Below, piece after piece: positions 39,858-47,148 of a DNA stretch of 53,955 bases. How positions within the stretch are numbered: position 1 is the stretch's first letter; each line of letters begins with the position of its first letter. Below the pieces are notes generated by a model, which did not search any database, was not told the DNA's origin, and saw only the letters and a program-made list of their open reading frames with translations. The stretch is from an uncultured Collinsella sp. Its GTDB lineage: Bacteria > Actinomycetota > Coriobacteriia > Coriobacteriales > Coriobacteriaceae. Both the position numbers and the translations under genes were made by a program. The stretch is from the NCBI GenBank assembly GCA_900550785.1, contig URTL01000001.1, forward strand, positions 1 through 53,955, given 5' to 3'.

Positions 39858-40240
39858 CCGTCGTATCGATACGGAAGTGGGTATAAACCGTCCTGCTGCT
39901 TGCATACGTGGTTCCGTTGCCGCCCGTCAGCTTGTAGCAGTTATAGAAGCACTGCGAGTCCGAAACCCCGCTCGAAGGCAGCGCCCAGGTGGCGTCGGCG
40001 TAGATCGTCACCAGCGACGAGCACCCCGAGAAGCAGTAGGTCAGGTCGGTGAGCGCAGACGGGTCGAAGCCTCGGAAGTCCAGCTCGGCGGGCGACGAGC
40101 GCGAAGCGAACGCGAACCGCACGACTTGACACCTGCGAGGTTGCCCAAACCGGAGACCACCTCCAGCGCCGTGCATAAGTAGAAGAGGTGGGTCAGGTTC
40201 ATGGTTGCGAACGCCGCCATGTCTGCCGCGAAGGCGATGC
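39826..40240 (-). pseudogene. C-terminal fragment of a BspA/DUF285-type leucine-rich-repeat protein, frameshifted
   Basis: LTHLFYLCTALEVVSGLGNL, a frameshift, then FDPSALTDLTYCFSGCSSLVTIYAD...CFYNCYKLTGGNGT...PGYLT. Confidence 0.6.
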
Positions 40241-40492
40241 GCTCATCGGCCGCCTGGCCTTCACCTGCTGGATTTCGTCGCGCAGGGCGTCCGCCACCTC
40301 GGCGCTCTTGGCAGCCTCGGCCACTTGCCCCTCAAGCTCCTTGATGCGAGCCTCCTGCTTGGCGAGAAGCGCCTGGTAGCCCCTCTCCGAGTCCACTGCC
40401 TGCGGCTCTTCCGCCTGCGCGACCCCTTCTTGGCCGCCCGCCTGCGCTGCGACCTCTTCCTCGTCGTCGATGCTATGGTCGTCTCCGTCCAT
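40240..40492 (-). pseudogene. N-terminal fragment of an acidic coiled-coil protein (phage scaffold-like)
   Basis: MDGDDHSIDDEEE...YQALLAKQEARIKELEGQVAEAAKSAEVADALRDEI; runs directly into the LRR fragment. Confidence 0.4.
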
Positions 40493-40691
40493 GTCGGCCT
40501 GCCTTTCGATTGACATAGGCCAGCACAAACGAACCGTCCCTTAACCATGCAAATAGGCTAAAGGTCGGTCACAAAGTGAGGTCATCCAGTCCGTTCGGCA
40601 GTTTGTGACCATTAGCAAGAATTAGAGGCAACGCAACGAGCGAACGCTCGATAATGGTCTAGAATATTGGACTTGACATTTGGGAGGCAAG

Positions 40692-40889
40692 ATGGAGACT
40701 GTGAACCTTATCCTTGGAATTATCGCGTCTATCGCATCCATCGCCGCCGCCGTCATCTCGCTCCAAAACAAGCAAGAGATCAAGTCAATCAAAAAGAGTC
40801 TAAGCGACAACTCGCAGACCGCTACAGGTAAAGTTGCCACAAACGTCGTAGGCAGCAACAACTCGGCGAACATCCATGCTTCGCGATAA
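40692..40889 (+). CDS. 65-aa protein: N-terminal TM helix plus C-terminal putative amyloid-signalling motif
   Basis: RBS GGGAGG; TM LILGIIASIASIAAAVISL; C-terminal SQTATGKVATNVVGSNNS; overlaps the next start codon. Confidence 0.75.
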   Translation: METVNLILGIIASIASIAAAVISLQNKQEIKSIKKSLSDNSQTATGKVATNVVGSNNSANIHASR

Positions 40890-41481
40890 GCCAACGCAGA
40901 CAAGCCAGAGCGCAATTGGAAAGGTCGCCACGAACATAACCGGCGACTCCAATAGCTATGACTCACATGACATAAACATCTACCAGCCCGTCTCGTCTGG
41001 CCCGCACCGGCCGCTTACAAAGACGCTCATGTATAAACTCCTGCAAATCATGATTTCGTCGACTGAGCCAACGGGCGAAGATTTCCCCCTTACGCCTCCG
41101 CCTCCTATAGAGAAGAAGCTGATTTACAACCACGCACCGCGTTACCTAAACATCATCAACGAGTATTCTGAGAACTACGCTCGTCTCGACAGCGTGATCA
41201 AGGAATTCCCCGACAGCGAAGCCATCATCCAAAGGCTGAACAAGATGTTTGTCAATGTGGCAGACGTTCGCGATGACGGCAAGCTGTGCGTAGGAAACGG
41301 CGATGCACAGCTCAAGCTCATCGAGAACGAGATCTATAACATGATTGTGAATGACGCAAGCTTTCAGGCTGACGAGGTCCCCGAAGAAATCATCAACCAG
41401 TTCTGCGTTGCGTTGATTGCCGTTGCCGTGGCAAAATGCAGAGTCCTTCTGAGGCCAGGTGATGACGATGCTGCTGCTTGA
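40876..41481 (+). CDS. ABC-three-component (Lamassu-like) effector-position protein: CTD only, with N-terminal low-complexity motif
   Basis: Directly upstream of the middle component and ATPase; PPPIEKKLIYN...IINEY and C-terminal AVAKCRVLLRP resemble ABC-3C CTDs; N-terminal SQSAIGKVATNITGDSNS. Confidence 0.7.
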   Translation: MLRDKPTQTSQSAIGKVATNITGDSNSYDSHDINIYQPVSSGPHRPLTKTLMYKLLQIMISSTEPTGEDFPLTPPPPIEKKLIYNHAPRYLNIINEYSENYARLDSVIKEFPDSEAIIQRLNKMFVNVADVRDDGKLCVGNGDAQLKLIENEIYNMIVNDASFQADEVPEEIINQFCVALIAVAVAKCRVLLRPGDDDAAA

Positions 41482-41713
41482 TCGCAATAATGAGCCGACG
41501 AGCACGGTCTATTACATCGCTGCCGCCTTGGATGGCTACATCGACCAGAACCCAGGCTTGGACGCCGGTCAACTCTATGAGGTAACGGCGAACACTCTGG
41601 TCAAGAAAGAAGTGAGCTACGACTTCTTTGTCATGGCTTTGGACTTTCTCTTCCTCCTCGGACGCGTGTCAATAGACGAGAAGGGAGGGCTACATGTTCA
41701 TCAAGTCGCTTAG
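41468..41713 (+). CDS. ABC-three-component middle component (LmuC-like)
   Basis: About 81 aa; EPTSTVYYIAA...FFVMALDFLFLLGRV motif; overlaps both neighbours. Confidence 0.75.
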   Translation: MLLLDRNNEPTSTVYYIAAALDGYIDQNPGLDAGQLYEVTANTLVKKEVSYDFFVMALDFLFLLGRVSIDEKGGLHVHQVA

Positions 41714-43418
41714 AATTCGCAAGACAACAACTGACGAAATAGTTCGCGAGGTCTTATTCCACAAGGGTGCCAACCTCATCGTCGATACCGAGGACTCCGA
41801 ATCGCACAATCGCGTTGGAAAAACAACCTTCCTCAAGCTCATTGATATCGCAATGGGCGCCAAGGACAGGAAGCTCATTTACACAGACGCCGACACGGGC
41901 ACGGTGACCGAGGAGCTACGCGATTTCATCGTCACAAACAAGATCGCCGTCGACATGACACTGACATCGGATTTTCCCGATGGCGATGACGTGATTCTCA
42001 CAATCGACCTCTTCCCGAATGGAAGGTACTACATAGACGGCGAAAAGATGGGGCAGAAAGCTTACCAGCAACGACTCAATGTCTTGCTTTTCGGGAACGA
42101 AGCGAATGTGCCCACGTTTCGCCAATTGATCAATTCATTTGTCCGCGTGTCCGTAGGCGGGGATGATAATTCCTTCCTCAAAACCGTTCCCAGCGGCAGC
42201 ACATCCATCTACCGGAGTGTCTACAACGCTCTGTTCGGCATCTCAGATCCGGCGCTCGACAAAAAGCGTGACGACCTCAACAAGGACTTGAACAAGACGC
42301 GTGAGTCCATCAAACGCTATAAGAAAGTCCAGAACGTCGATACGGTCAGCGAGCAGCAGCAGATACTTACAGGGCTCGAAGCCGAGCATGAAGAAGTCCA
42401 GTGCAAGCTCAACAGCATCATCGACGCCGATGTCTACAGGGCCAACCGCGATGAAATCGCGGCTACACGCACCCGATACGCATCTCTGACACTGCAACTC
42501 TCAGACATAGACTACAGGCTGCAACGAAATGAAGAGGCCCTGCAGACTGCTATGCAAGAGCGCGGTAGACAAGCCGACGTTAATTTGAGCAGACGGTTTT
42601 TCGAGGAAGTCTGTTCGATGATCCCGATGGTGAATGCAACTTTCGAAGAGATGGTCGCATTCAACAACCAGCTCTGCGACAACAAGATTGCCTATTTCGC
42701 GAGTGTGGCAGAAAAACTGAAGGCCGAGCGTGCATCTGTGCAACGTGAAATCAGCCAACTGTCATCGCAGAACAGCCAATTCATGTCATTGGTGGAGCAA
42801 GACCTCATCGATGAGTACGAGTCGCTTCAGGCACGCCTAGTTGAGCTTTCGAGCAGTATCGGCAAATGCCGAGAAGTAATAGATACGCTCAACAGCTTTG
42901 AGGTAGAACAGACCAGCATTGAGGGAAAAATCGCATCGCTTGGCTCGTCTGATGATGGCGACGAGCCGCAATCCAACGATTTTGCTGCAATGATGCTTGC
43001 GTTTAACGCATTCTTCACTCCGCTTGCCAGGGAGTTCAACAACGAATCGCCGCTGCTCGTTTACTATGAAGAGTCGAACAAGTTCCCCGTTGCAATACGT
43101 GATACCGCTGGCTCCAGCACGGGCACACGCAAGTCACTCATCGCCGCATTTGATTTAGCGTATCAGCAGTTTGCAGAATCAAAGGGCATCAAGACTCCGC
43201 GCTTCATAGTGCATGACGTCCTTGAAAACATCGAGGGTAAGGTGTTGCGTGACATAATCGCACGCGCCAGCACAATCAACTGCCAGTACATAGTCGCAGT
43301 CCTTAAGGAGAAGCTCGATTCGTCGCTGATACCAGCCGAGGAGCAGGGTAAACTGCAAATCCTGCAGCTTTCGATTGACGATATGCTTTTCACGCGTGGC
43401 AAAGGTGTTGCGTCGTAG
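41694..43418 (+). CDS. ABC-three-component SMC/Rad50-like ATPase (DUF2326, LmuB-like)
   Basis: MFIKSL...FHKGANLIVD, Walker A HNRVGKTT, PTFRQLI, central coiled coil, signature SSTGTRK, Walker B FIVHD, QYIVAVL. Confidence 0.85.
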   Translation: MFIKSLRIRKTTTDEIVREVLFHKGANLIVDTEDSESHNRVGKTTFLKLIDIAMGAKDRKLIYTDADTGTVTEELRDFIVTNKIAVDMTLTSDFPDGDDVILTIDLFPNGRYYIDGEKMGQKAYQQRLNVLLFGNEANVPTFRQLINSFVRVSVGGDDNSFLKTVPSGSTSIYRSVYNALFGISDPALDKKRDDLNKDLNKTRESIKRYKKVQNVDTVSEQQQILTGLEAEHEEVQCKLNSIIDADVYRANRDEIAATRTRYASLTLQLSDIDYRLQRNEEALQTAMQERGRQADVNLSRRFFEEVCSMIPMVNATFEEMVAFNNQLCDNKIAYFASVAEKLKAERASVQREISQLSSQNSQFMSLVEQDLIDEYESLQARLVELSSSIGKCREVIDTLNSFEVEQTSIEGKIASLGSSDDGDEPQSNDFAAMMLAFNAFFTPLAREFNNESPLLVYYEESNKFPVAIRDTAGSSTGTRKSLIAAFDLAYQQFAESKGIKTPRFIVHDVLENIEGKVLRDIIARASTINCQYIVAVLKEKLDSSLIPAEEQGKLQILQLSIDDMLFTRGKGVAS

Positions 43419-43779: not shown

Positions 43780-44997
43780 CTAGTCAAGTACCCGTTGCCT
43801 CTCCTCGACCATCTCGCAGAAGCCTCCCACATCCATGAGCCATTCTTGCTGTGAAGGCGTGTAGGTGGGGAAAAGCTGGGAGGGGATGACGAGCTGGAGC
43901 TTGCTGTCACGCATGGCGTTCGTGTAGTCCACGCTCACGGCGGGCTCCAGCGTGATAAGGTGCTTACGCTCGATGCGGTTCGCCTCCTCGAGCACCTGCC
44001 TCCAGCGCTCCTTGATGGTCGTCTTCGCACCGAGCATCGTAAGGCTCGAGGAGGGGAACCCCTCATCCCGGTAGCACTCGATTGACGGAAAAATGAAGTC
44101 CGGCTTCGACTTTCCCTCGGTGTAGGGCTGTGCGGAGTATCGGATTCCCCTACCCTTGAACAGGAACTCAAGCTGGTGCTCGAACGCTGTGCCCGCGCGG
44201 GACTTCCTGCGCTGGAAGGTCGACATGGTGGTCTTCAGAATGCCGTCGACGTCGAGCTGGCCGTTCAAATAGGGCGCAAGGTCTCTCTCAAGCAGATGGC
44301 GCTCAAACACCTTGAACAGCAATTCCTCGCGCTCGTAGCACGCGAGCAGGCTTCGATCGGGGTCATCCGCCCAGTCGAGACCTTCAAGGGTTGAGATGGA
44401 GTACTCCGTAAAGTCGATGCCCTTCGGAAACGTATGTCCAAACCTCTTGACCATATCGTCCAAGTAGATATCCGCGCTCAAGGGAGCGCGCGTCTCGATA
44501 CCAATCATGCCGAGGATGCGCGAGGCCACCGCACCGATACGGTTGCGCTCGCCCTTTGATACGGCATAGCCCGAGCGGTCGGGCTCCTCGAAGCCGAACA
44601 GCCACCTCAGCTGCGACTCGATGGTCGAGCCTTTTTTAGCGAAGATGATGAGCAGCCCGAGGTCATCGGAGTTGGCGACCACCATGAGGTCGCCAGCGGA
44701 TGCCTGCCTGATGGCGGGGTTGTCCTTGTAGTAGAGACGGTACTCGGTTCTCGTGGGATGTTTGCGGCGCGCATCGTACCAAGTCACGGTCCCGTCGCAC
44801 ATCTCCGGCTCCGCCTCGTCGCACATGTAGGCGAACGTGGTGCGGATGTCGCGGATGTCGTCGTCACCGAACAGCGACCTCAGCGGCAGCGTGCCGTTGA
44901 ACTCGTGCTGATTACTCCTACCTGCGTCGATATCGACGTCCGCGAGGGTCTTCGAGACCGCGCCGTCGAAGTAGCTGCTAAGCGCCCCGTAATCCAT
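43780..44997 (-). CDS. Type II restriction endonuclease, EcoRII family
   Basis: N-terminal SNQHEFNG and TWYDAR..HPTRTEYRLYY; catalytic RRKSRAG, KPDFIFP, GAKTTIKERWRQVLEEA. Confidence 0.88.
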   Translation of the reverse strand: MDYGALSSYFDGAVSKTLADVDIDAGRSNQHEFNGTLPLRSLFGDDDIRDIRTTFAYMCDEAEPEMCDGTVTWYDARRKHPTRTEYRLYYKDNPAIRQASAGDLMVVANSDDLGLLIIFAKKGSTIESQLRWLFGFEEPDRSGYAVSKGERNRIGAVASRILGMIGIETRAPLSADIYLDDMVKRFGHTFPKGIDFTEYSISTLEGLDWADDPDRSLLACYEREELLFKVFERHLLERDLAPYLNGQLDVDGILKTTMSTFQRRKSRAGTAFEHQLEFLFKGRGIRYSAQPYTEGKSKPDFIFPSIECYRDEGFPSSSLTMLGAKTTIKERWRQVLEEANRIERKHLITLEPAVSVDYTNAMRDSKLQLVIPSQLFPTYTPSQQEWLMDVGGFCEMVEERQRVLD

Positions 44998-46150
44998 CCT
45001 GACACGCTCCCATCATGAGCTTGGCCACCGACCGTATTACAGGGACCGTCACCGAATTGCCGAACTGGCGGTAGGCCTGTGTGTCGGAGACCGGGATTAT
45101 GAACCGGTCGGGAAATCCCTGCAAGCGCGCGCACTCTCTAGGGGTCAGCTTACGGGGGTTCTCGCCCTCGCCGCGCGAGACCAAGATCTCACTACCGTCC
45201 TTATGATAGCGTGCGGAGAGCGTCCTCGTGGTGTCCGATGGAGTGATAAGACCGTAGCCGAACCCGTTGCCGGCGGCCTCGTGCTTGGCCTTGTATGCTT
45301 TCAAATATGACCACAGCTTGTCGGAGAGCACGTACCTCGCGTCCGCATCCTCCTCCAGAATCTCCGCGGCTTTCTGACCACTGTTCGGGCAGTCGAGGTC
45401 GTCCCAAGAGAACTCCACATCGTCGCGAAAGCCAACAATGTAGATGCGCTCGCGGTGCTGGCATGTCCAACCCTTGGAGTCCAGAACCTTGTAGTGAACG
45501 TGGTAACCGAGCTCGTCCTGGAGGACCTGCATGATGACGTCGAACGTTCTGCCCCTGTCGTGACTGATCAGATTCTTCACGTTCTCGAGCAGGAACGCCT
45601 TCGGGCGCTTCTCGTTCAGGATGCGTGCAACCTCGAAGAAGAGCGTGCCCTGCGTCTTGTCTTCGAAGCCCGTAGCGCGACCAAGGGAGCGCTTCTTGGA
45701 CACACCCGCAAGCGAGAACGGCTGGCATGGAAAGCCAGCGAGCAGCACGTCGAAGTCGGGGATGTCTGAAGCGGCGACCTCACGGATGTCCCCCGCCGGG
45801 GTTTCGCCGTAGTTCATGCGGTAGGTCTTCTGCGCAAACTTATCCCACTCGCAGGAGAAGACGCACCTGCCGCCCAGCTCCTGGAACGGCATGCGGATCC
45901 CGCCGATGCCCGCGAACAGGTCGATGAAGGTGAAGGCAGGCTTCCCCTCCCCTGCGGGTGCAAAGGGGGCGCGATGGCCGAGGGTGGAGATGTACTTCGA
46001 CTCGGCTGCGGTGGGCCTTGTTTCGCCTGCCTCCCAGCGGCGCACCGTTCGCTCGCCGTTGGGGCCCATGCCTAGGGCAGCGGCGAATTCCTTCTGAGTC
46101 AAGCCGAGCTCCTGTCTCTTGGCCTTTACCTCATCTGCTGATAATTGCAT
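44978..46150 (-). CDS. dcm: DNA (cytosine-5)-methyltransferase with N-terminal HTH (Dcm/EcoRII/SsoII-like)
   Basis: HTH LGLTQKEFAAALG..ERTVRRWE; FIDLFAGIGG, GFPCQPFS, LENV, QHRER, TLSARYHKDGSEIL, YRQFGNSV. Confidence 0.92.
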   Translation of the reverse strand: MQLSADEVKAKRQELGLTQKEFAAALGMGPNGERTVRRWEAGETRPTAAESKYISTLGHRAPFAPAGEGKPAFTFIDLFAGIGGIRMPFQELGGRCVFSCEWDKFAQKTYRMNYGETPAGDIREVAASDIPDFDVLLAGFPCQPFSLAGVSKKRSLGRATGFEDKTQGTLFFEVARILNEKRPKAFLLENVKNLISHDRGRTFDVIMQVLQDELGYHVHYKVLDSKGWTCQHRERIYIVGFRDDVEFSWDDLDCPNSGQKAAEILEEDADARYVLSDKLWSYLKAYKAKHEAAGNGFGYGLITPSDTTRTLSARYHKDGSEILVSRGEGENPRKLTPRECARLQGFPDRFIIPVSDTQAYRQFGNSVTVPVIRSVAKLMMGACQDGLRGA

Positions 46151-46527
46151 GACGCACCTTCTGGATAGATAACAGGACAATATGTCCTCATTTTGCCACA
46201 GGGATGAAGAGATAAACTCGTCAGAATAGCAACCTTGCCCCAAACCATGGGTTTCTCACGTCTCCCACATCCGACAATCCATGTACCACTCAAACCGCGA
46301 AGACCCATCTAACCACCGCTGCGTTCTATACGATAGTCGTTCGCCAGGACATTTTTCTGCCGCCGCAGTCATTAGTCCAAGTGAAAAGCGGCAAGCCGAG
46401 AACCTCACGCCTCTCCATCATCAATCATTCCATTTCACAAATGACGCAGCGGCGCAATTAGCAACGCGGAGCATGGAACCATGCTATACCCGTCCAAACG
46501 ATATTGTCCGCGCCCAACAGCTATCAA

Positions 46528-46767: not shown

Positions 46768-46881
46768 AAAGACCCTCAGACTCTCCGATCACACCCACCC
46801 GTTACAGATTGAGACAATTTGACGGTACCGAATTCTTGTCAAGGCGTGGTACAATTGTGTCCCAACGCAAAGGAGGTACCT

Positions 46882-47148
46882 ATGCCCACCTGTGTGCCCG
46901 TCCGAGACATGAAGGACACCGCTGCATTTACCGCGCTTGTTGAGTCCGAGCGCGACGTCACCGTAACTAAGAACGGCTATGAGGCCATGCACTGCATCAG
47001 CAGCGACCAGTATCGTCTCATGCAAGACGAAATCGCCAAAGCCAAGCTGCTGTCTCGTATGATGTTGGCAGAAGACGAGATATCGCAAGGCGACTACAGC
47101 GACTACGACTCCTTCGCGACCGCGATACGAGACAAATATGGCCTATAA
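46882..47148 (+). CDS. Type II antitoxin, Phd/YefM family
   Basis: RBS AGGAGG; PVRDMKDT...VTVTKNGY motif; overlaps the toxin gene. Confidence 0.85.
   Translation: MPTCVPVRDMKDTAAFTALVESERDVTVTKNGYEAMHCISSDQYRLMQDEIAKAKLLSRMMLAEDEISQGDYSDYDSFATAIRDKYGL

Follow-up and report, generated by a model that had tools for sequence, protein, structure and literature searches.

About 15% of prokaryotic genomes contain Lamassu, and a published survey names HNH and SMEK as effectors of short Lamassu, leaves one short-Lamassu clade (clade O) effector-less, and describes the N-terminal effector domain as making minimal contacts in the resting complex (10.1101/2025.04.02.646746). Two structural studies report that LmuB2-LmuC keeps the oligomerisation domain of LmuA sequestered in monomeric form, and that liberated LmuA forms tetramers in which the fused nuclease is switched on. 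Amyloid signalling motifs of fungi and bacteria are characterised by identity of the partners, a G/N/Q-rich and L/P-poor composition and a disordered monomer (bioRxiv 10.1101/2020.01.06.895854). In E. coli, the Bab/Agp pair (BASS11) is described as an amyloid-signalling abortive-infection pair with a non-NLR partner (bioRxiv 10.1101/2024.11.07.622273). Here we analyse a four-gene operon at positions 40,692-43,418 of a 53,955-nucleotide stretch of DNA from an uncultured Collinsella sp. (contig URTL01000001.1, assembly GCA_900550785.1), the whole stretch being referred to below as the window. The operon encodes a small membrane protein, a protein similar to LmuA's C-terminal domain (CTD) and lacking a fused effector, a middle component and an SMC-like ATPase. 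We find that the tail of the small protein and the N-terminus of the CTD protein carry the same motif, and that in diverged loci these motifs vary by lineage, match within the locus and are maintained at the protein level.

In the window, the small membrane protein (65 aa from its ATG, 40692..40889, plus strand) bears the effector-side copy of the motif, SQTATGKVATNVVGSNNS (40812..40865, plus), in its C-terminal G/N/Q/S/T-rich tail, and the CTD protein (201 aa, 40876..41481, plus) bears the adaptor-side copy, SQSAIGKVATNITGDSNS (40903..40956, plus), close to its N-terminus; both copies were defined by translation and BLASTP. The two are identical at 12 of 18 residues and at 30 of 54 nucleotides. 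An earlier note on this DNA, which proposed the shared 18-residue motif, had counted 12 identities, eight of them with different codons; an exact recount returned the same figures and the same codons. The note had also pointed to NI[H/Y] following both motifs. NIH and NIY are present, their offsets differ and relatives conserve neither, so that this element is given no weight. BLASTP of the small protein against the CTD protein yields an E-value of 3e-07 over 30 residues. Shuffling the whole proteins 5000 times never attained the local alignment score of 69 (maximum 52), nor did 5000 shuffles restricted to the two low-complexity tails (maximum 48), therefore the similarity is real and is not an artefact of composition.

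Because close relatives in genomes and metagenomes are near-identical to the window locus, the search was extended to plasmids by tblastn and to IMG/VR by means of an ATPase alignment. Twelve loci of this short form share the four-gene layout: the window, L029, L033, L034, L036, L037, L044, L041, L042, L043, L045 and L055. L033 is a Lacticaseibacillus paracasei plasmid, while L036, L037 and L044 are Clostridium plasmids and a prophage contig. Close kin are among the loci counted (L036/L037/L044, the window with L029, and L047 with L048); the independent short-form lineages number eight, include Collinsella, Lacticaseibacillus, Clostridium and prophage contigs, and have CTD bodies that are 19-52% identical between lineages. 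An upstream open reading frame (ORF) with a single helix is found in all 12 loci, its hydropathy maximum on the Kyte-Doolittle scale being 1.89-2.73 and its tail consisting of 52-76% G/N/Q/S/T. The small ORF and the CTD gene overlap by 11-20 nt in nine of the 12 and are separated by 1-19 nt in the other three; in L045 the two ORFs lie in the same frame with a stop and 12 nt between them. The earlier note had named two outcomes that would speak against its proposal, fusion of the ORFs in one frame and lack of the paired motif. Such a fusion is seen in 0 of 12 short-form loci. Ten of the 11 scored loci show a clear pairing (cognate rank 1 or 2 of 90), and L055 shows a weak one. A profile search of viral contigs with another alignment found again the L034 contig alone, and tblastn against phages gave no match.

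Alignment of the small-protein tails with the CTD N-termini illustrates how far the motifs differ between loci: SQTATGKVATNVVG pairs with SQSAIGKVATNITG in the window, SNNKLISKGNNNLQQVG with SNNKLSAKGDSNVQQVG in L033, NNHGNNSGIQIGNNNG with NNHGNNDGLQIGVNKG in L042, SVNNKGVIGGSISGG with SVNNKGIIAGKIEGD in L043 and NTTVRNQKVGKGSRVING with NTTITNQTIGNKSAVING in L045. Each 35-residue tail was scored against 90 N-termini, comprising the cognate one, those of 10 other loci and those of 79 database representatives; L044, near-identical to L037, was left out, giving 11 scored loci of the 12. The cognate N-terminus ranked first of 90 in seven of the 11 and second in three, behind a closely related locus alone. 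Cognate pairs score 64 on average, compared with 29 for non-cognate pairs, and the true pairing alone comes top of all 40,320 permutations of the eight lineages, as well as top of 362,880 permutations when L043 is added to make nine loci. These ranks and permutations bear out the co-variation for which the earlier note had proposed a test, between the tail of the upstream ORF and the CTD N-terminus, similarity within a locus exceeding that between loci. Counted over 10 loci, 118 aligned residues are identical, and 58 of these use different codons; since about half of them differ in this way, recent gene conversion is not the cause of the match.

Ten sister loci with an MC6/DUF2326 core carry a fused effector, either SMEK_N joined to CTD10 or HNH joined to CTD10, with E-values of 3.7e-37 and 1.3e-27 for the SMEK_N+CTD10 protein. 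None of these 10 has a hydrophobic upstream ORF with a G/N/Q/S/T-rich tail. In L056, a 140-aa protein, judged by eye a putative HTH regulator (L056:1540-1962), is encoded upstream of an HNH-CTD10 Lamassu gene; it contains an internal stretch rich in G/N/Q, QQANGNSGVIMGNNNSNVNN, with a coiled-coil-like tail behind it, and the HNH-CTD protein displays no matching motif.

The CTD protein itself appears to consist of a disordered N-terminus and a helical domain. In an AlphaFold2 model built with 66 homologues (mean predicted local distance difference test score, pLDDT, of 86), residues 45-195 form a confident helical domain, whereas residues 1-44 have a pLDDT of 51-65 and no secondary structure. 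Among 48,161 PDB chains, the two best structural matches of the model are C-terminal domains of LmuA: 9nxx_A (Z 5.4, rmsd 4.3, 110 residues aligned) and 9hqx_A (Z 4.8). Foldseek of the model against PDB found nothing at E of 0.001 or lower, its best match being 9a6c_B (E 0.03), an integrative model of YydD-YydB. The CTDs of L042 and L055 pass the Pfam CTD10 cut-off with 30.9 and 30.0 bits, their kinship being taken from synteny and from CTD bodies 24-28% identical to that of the window protein. A HMMER scan of 1.84 billion representatives recovered 94 relatives of the family at E of 0.001 or lower; as each of the 94 has at most 222 aa, the family has no fused effector. The 79 full-length members (at least 170 aa, with an M start) begin about 5-55 residues ahead of the domain. 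Thus the effector that Lamassu fuses N-terminally to the CTD is replaced here by a mere 44 disordered residues, in agreement with the earlier claim that the protein lacks an enzymatic effector. The first 35 residues of family members contain 47.8% G/N/Q/S/T compared with 23.5% in the remainder, with N at 16.6 versus 6.8%, L at 5.4 versus 10.2% and charged residues at 15.9 versus 29%. Strict regular expressions for a single consensus motif matched 15 and 18 of the 79 N-termini, and judged from their sequences the N-termini comprise several motif types and no single one.

The small protein of the window reaches 2.57 in its best 19-aa Kyte-Doolittle window, and its AlphaFold2 model places a helix at residues 2-44 ahead of an unstructured tail (pLDDT about 46-50); hydropathy and model thus agree with its earlier description as a transmembrane (TM) protein. 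The N-terminal helices can be aligned between loci, and RefSeq plasmid records annotate the small ORFs as coding sequences. Basic residues flank the cytoplasmic side of a membrane helix, a regularity known as the positive-inside rule, and the basic linker QNKQEIKSIKKSL behind the hydrophobic helix accordingly points to a tail on the cytoplasmic side. For the small protein no Pfam domain exceeds its cut-off, no PADLOC or NCBIfam model exists for either it or the CTD protein, and ESM Atlas returned unnamed clusters only. The small membrane protein of L042 (L042:1929-2180) has more than 20 asparagines in a row between helix and motif, and database relatives P0161, P0163 and P0168 have shorter runs; the differing size of these runs suggests a linker of variable length.

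The remainder of the operon identifies the system to which this pair belongs. A Shine-Dalgarno-like GGGAGG (40682..40687, plus), read directly from the sequence, stands 5 nt ahead of the ATG of the small ORF, and the four co-directional ORFs overlap successively by 14, 23 and 20 nt. A scan of the operon for promoters and terminators did no better than shuffled sequence. The 84-aa middle component (LmuC-like, 41459..41713, plus) matches Pfam MC6, PF20293, with E 4e-22 and 78.4 bits (cut-off 27.2); a genome search places this match at 41480-41698, and the ATG at 41468 may be the true start. The last gene (41694..43418, plus) encodes a 574-aa SMC/Rad50-like ABC ATPase, LmuB-like, which exceeds the Pfam cut-off for DUF2326 (E 4.3e-14) and in PADLOC matches PDC-M68B (E 4.1e-27) and LmuB (E 1.3e-13). 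Its Walker A motif GKTT occupies residues 42-45, and G42, K43, T44 and T45 together with D508 are invariant across six ATPases. The core genes follow the Lamassu order A-C-B. On the strength of these matches, clear for the ATPase and the middle component and weak for the CTD, the operon is an ABC-3C/short-Lamassu system of the MC6/DUF2326 type. Both the four overlapping genes listed in the earlier note and its assignment of them to Lamassu/ABC-3C thereby stand, the ORFs, the MC6 and DUF2326/LmuB profiles and the LmuA-CTD fold matches being in agreement.

How might the shared motif work? At rest, the CTD protein would be held as a monomer by LmuB2-LmuC, as in the solved Lamassu complexes. Sensing of phage DNA would free the CTD protein, which would then oligomerise and gather several N-terminal motifs. 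The gathered motifs could form a beta-sheet nucleus that recruits or templates the tails of the small protein in identical register, in the manner of amyloid signalling, and the recruited tails would cluster the membrane helices, leading to membrane damage and abortive infection. We place the probability of this chain as a whole, an effector-less LmuA acting through a homotypic, amyloid-signalling-like motif on a split membrane effector that kills at the membrane, at roughly 0.6. One part of it, the coupling of a split effector to an effector-less LmuA by a homotypic motif, is well supported and likely. Templating specifically of the amyloid type is a near-even proposition, and the strongest wording, that Lamassu signals by prion-like templating with the freed LmuA-like protein nucleating a cross-beta fold and thereby a lethal one-helix membrane assembly, we put forward tentatively, as slightly more doubtful than probable.

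The amyloid reading is drawn from features that define amyloid signalling motifs, namely identity of the partners, an N/Q/G-rich and L-poor composition and a disordered monomer. The same motif stands at the effector C-terminus and at the partner N-terminus, in adjacent collinear genes, clearly so in 10 of the 11 scored loci; similarity within pairs exceeds similarity between pairs; and the segments, some 20 residues long, are enriched in G/N/Q, poor in L and in charge and predicted to be unstructured as monomers (pLDDT about 46-65). The partner is not an NLR or STAND protein, and the effector is without a domain of the Bell/HeLo type. The locus L042 has an IQIG/LQIG core, and its CTD protein alone matches Ses_B (PF17046, a fungal death-pathway motif) at a sub-threshold E of 0.0044, which is only a hint of likeness to an amyloid motif. 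A complex prediction with two copies each of CTD residues 1-48 and small-protein residues 28-65, run without controls, scored 0.03 against a mark of 0.32 and speaks neither for nor against binding.

Several observations weigh against this reading. The cognate match of L055 is weak, though in register (score 27, rank 16 of 90), the pair has drifted to about 8 of 18 identities, counted by eye, in the close relative L029, and specificity is not strict within the group of L036, L037 and L043. Pfam families of amyloid motifs match 0 of 66 members of the CTD family, L042 not being among these, and 0 of 12 small proteins, and the tests made of the small protein revealed no similarity to Bell/HeLo. 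On the side of Lamassu, the CTD10 match of the window protein is sub-threshold (E 0.039), both LmuA fold matches have a Z below 8, a range that may be non-specific for helical proteins, and a phmmer search of PDB sequences with the ATPase gave 0 matches. Finally, direct binding of the two proteins, a fibrillar or otherwise templated form of the motif, killing at the membrane and activity of the subtype against phage are inferred from these comparisons, which counts on the same side.

An alternative that accounts for the sequence data nearly as well is a homotypic adaptor without amyloid, in which the motifs form a defined, stoichiometric beta-zipper or small oligomer as effector-associated adaptor domains do, the small protein being either an effector clustered by the CTD protein or a membrane anchor for Lamassu, and self-propagating templating plays no part. 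Co-variation and architecture call for specific recognition and not for amyloid, known amyloid-motif HMMs give no significant match, and since LmuA is reported to form closed tetramers, a 4:4 assembly would suffice. Yet the partners are identical and not complementary, which is the hallmark of in-register parallel stacking, and the N/Q/G-rich composition, poor in L and in charge, and the disordered monomer point the same way, while a pure membrane anchor would leave the absence of any other effector in this clade unexplained; we regard the adaptor as rather unlikely. A role of the small protein as regulator or decoy, its tail capping the CTD N-terminus and so keeping it from self-assembling, or competing with it for one site on LmuB or LmuC, with toxicity seated elsewhere, for instance in the CTD protein or the ATPase, is improbable. 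Mimicry of the motif would be compatible with the co-variation, and the toxicity of the small protein is itself deduced, but Pfam, PADLOC and NCBIfam scans found no alternative effector domain in the operon, sister systems place a nuclease or SMEK domain at the exact position of the motif, and a decoy would make the conserved TM helix superfluous.

The two remaining alternatives deny that there are two partners to couple, or that their likeness means anything. In most loci the CTD gene is read in the +1 frame with respect to the small ORF, so the pair could be one gene that repeats the motif internally in tandem and has been split by a frameshift or is translated by programmed frameshifting. 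This is very improbable: all 12 short-form loci keep two separate ORFs across 19-52% CTD identity and several phyla, the ORFs of L045 share a frame and are nevertheless separated by their stop and 12 nt, all 94 relatives remain within 222 aa with the 79 full-length ones starting about 5-55 residues before the domain, and no slippery heptamer is visible in the 14-nt overlap. Chance likeness of two low-complexity tails, or a recent gene conversion without function, is scarcely credible, compositionally biased though both segments are, as none of the 5000 composition-matched shuffles attained the observed score, equally biased non-cognate pairs average 29 where cognate pairs average 64, and gene conversion is at odds with the different codons at about half of the identical residues. 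The chain from a freed CTD protein to a clustered membrane effector remains the reading that we prefer.

The surroundings of the operon are those of a small defence island. Directly downstream, on the minus strand at window 43780-46243, are an EcoRII-C restriction endonuclease (E 7e-54) and a C5 cytosine methylase (E 3.4e-91) whose N-terminus carries a helix-turn-helix (HTH) domain, and the Lamassu operon together with this restriction-modification pair lies between phosphotransferase system (PTS)/glycosidase genes and a DeoR regulator. A 109-aa ORF at window 46819-47148 (plus) has a weak match to the Phd/YefM antitoxin, below cut-off at E 0.0089, and possibly belongs to a toxin-antitoxin pair at the edge of the island. 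Upstream of the operon, an ORF at window 40199-40528 (minus) resembles by eye the one ahead of the operon in the IMG/VR contig L034 (L034:1300-1884, minus), both having the stretch ...ELEG..AEAAKSAE.A.ALR..., which may reflect a prophage or mobile context common to the two. With the CTD profile, genome contigs yielded 15 loci, all 99-100% identical and in species-representative Collinsella/Coriobacteriaceae genomes, metagenome contigs yielded 17, of which L028 and L029 were the only usable variants (L030-L032 come from indel-ridden assemblies), and viral contigs yielded no locus. A search of 401 genomes of the same phylum matched only the genome of the window, 10 other genomes of the same genus being without a match. 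Relatives are located on plasmids and IMG/VR contigs, and the distribution of the CTD protein looks patchy and mobile.

Among described systems, Bab/Agp offers a close parallel (bioRxiv 10.1101/2024.11.07.622273). There, as in the present loci, a small protein whose N-terminus forms a hydrophobic helix ends in a C-terminal motif of about 25 aa that matches the N-terminus of an adjacent non-NLR defence protein, and the setting is a defence island or prophage. The differences are that Bab has 109 aa and a helical 'Babybell' domain, whereas the small proteins described here have 59-85 aa and a TM helix only, that the motif sequences differ, and that the present pair is known from genes alone; the preprint makes no mention of Lamassu, ABC or SMC. 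With the Bell/NLR BASS pairs and HET-S/NWD2 (bioRxiv 10.1101/2020.01.06.895854), the locus shares a motif at the effector C-terminus and the receptor N-terminus, adjacent, collinear and often overlapping genes, a G/N/Q-rich and L/P-poor motif, and a receptor side that oligomerises and would be expected to nucleate. Unlike them, it has neither a NACHT/NB-ARC STAND ATPase nor a Bell/HeLo domain, and its hosts are unicellular gut and food Bacillota and Collinsella, whereas the BASS hosts reported there are multicellular Actinobacteria and Cyanobacteria.

Among Lamassu systems, the present locus probably belongs to the effector-less clade O. In both, to go by the text of the survey (10.1101/2025.04.02.646746), LmuB is short (about 600 aa), LmuC is present and LmuA is cut to its CTD, and the HNH and SMEK effectors named there for short Lamassu recur here in the sister loci. 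Unlike the clade O of that description, whose text mentions no transmembrane protein and no motif, the present loci have a TM protein and a paired motif. The coupled membrane protein may therefore explain the published effector-less short-Lamassu clade, for which it supplies a concrete candidate effector together with a coupling mechanism. The earlier note knew of no such combination for Lamassu, and the searched literature shows no link between Lamassu/DUF2326 and amyloid, a literature that does not take in the paper which founded ABC-3C (Krishnan et al. 2020, NAR), so that prior notice there is possible; nor does anything in it on LmuA with a transmembrane protein (titles and abstracts) or on ABC-3C evidently describe this coupling.

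If the proposed chain is true, the small protein would be the smallest amyloid-controlled executioner known, and amyloid signalling would be shown to serve unicellular bacteria as a portable module for coupling. Two fields unconnected in the searched literature, SMC-like immunity and amyloid signalling, would be joined, paired-motif signalling would extend beyond NLRs and multicellular bacteria, and the locus-specific motifs suggest that sensor and effector are joined by orthogonal, swappable 'wiring'. In comparison with canonical Lamassu of the Cap4 nuclease type, the locus retains the gene order A-C-B, the SMC-like ATPase and the middle component, as well as a CTD similar to the domain by which LmuA oligomerises, whereas the effector is unfused and a fourth gene is added. 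The known logic of Lamassu is to liberate and oligomerise an enzyme effector fused to LmuA; here, the effector is split off.

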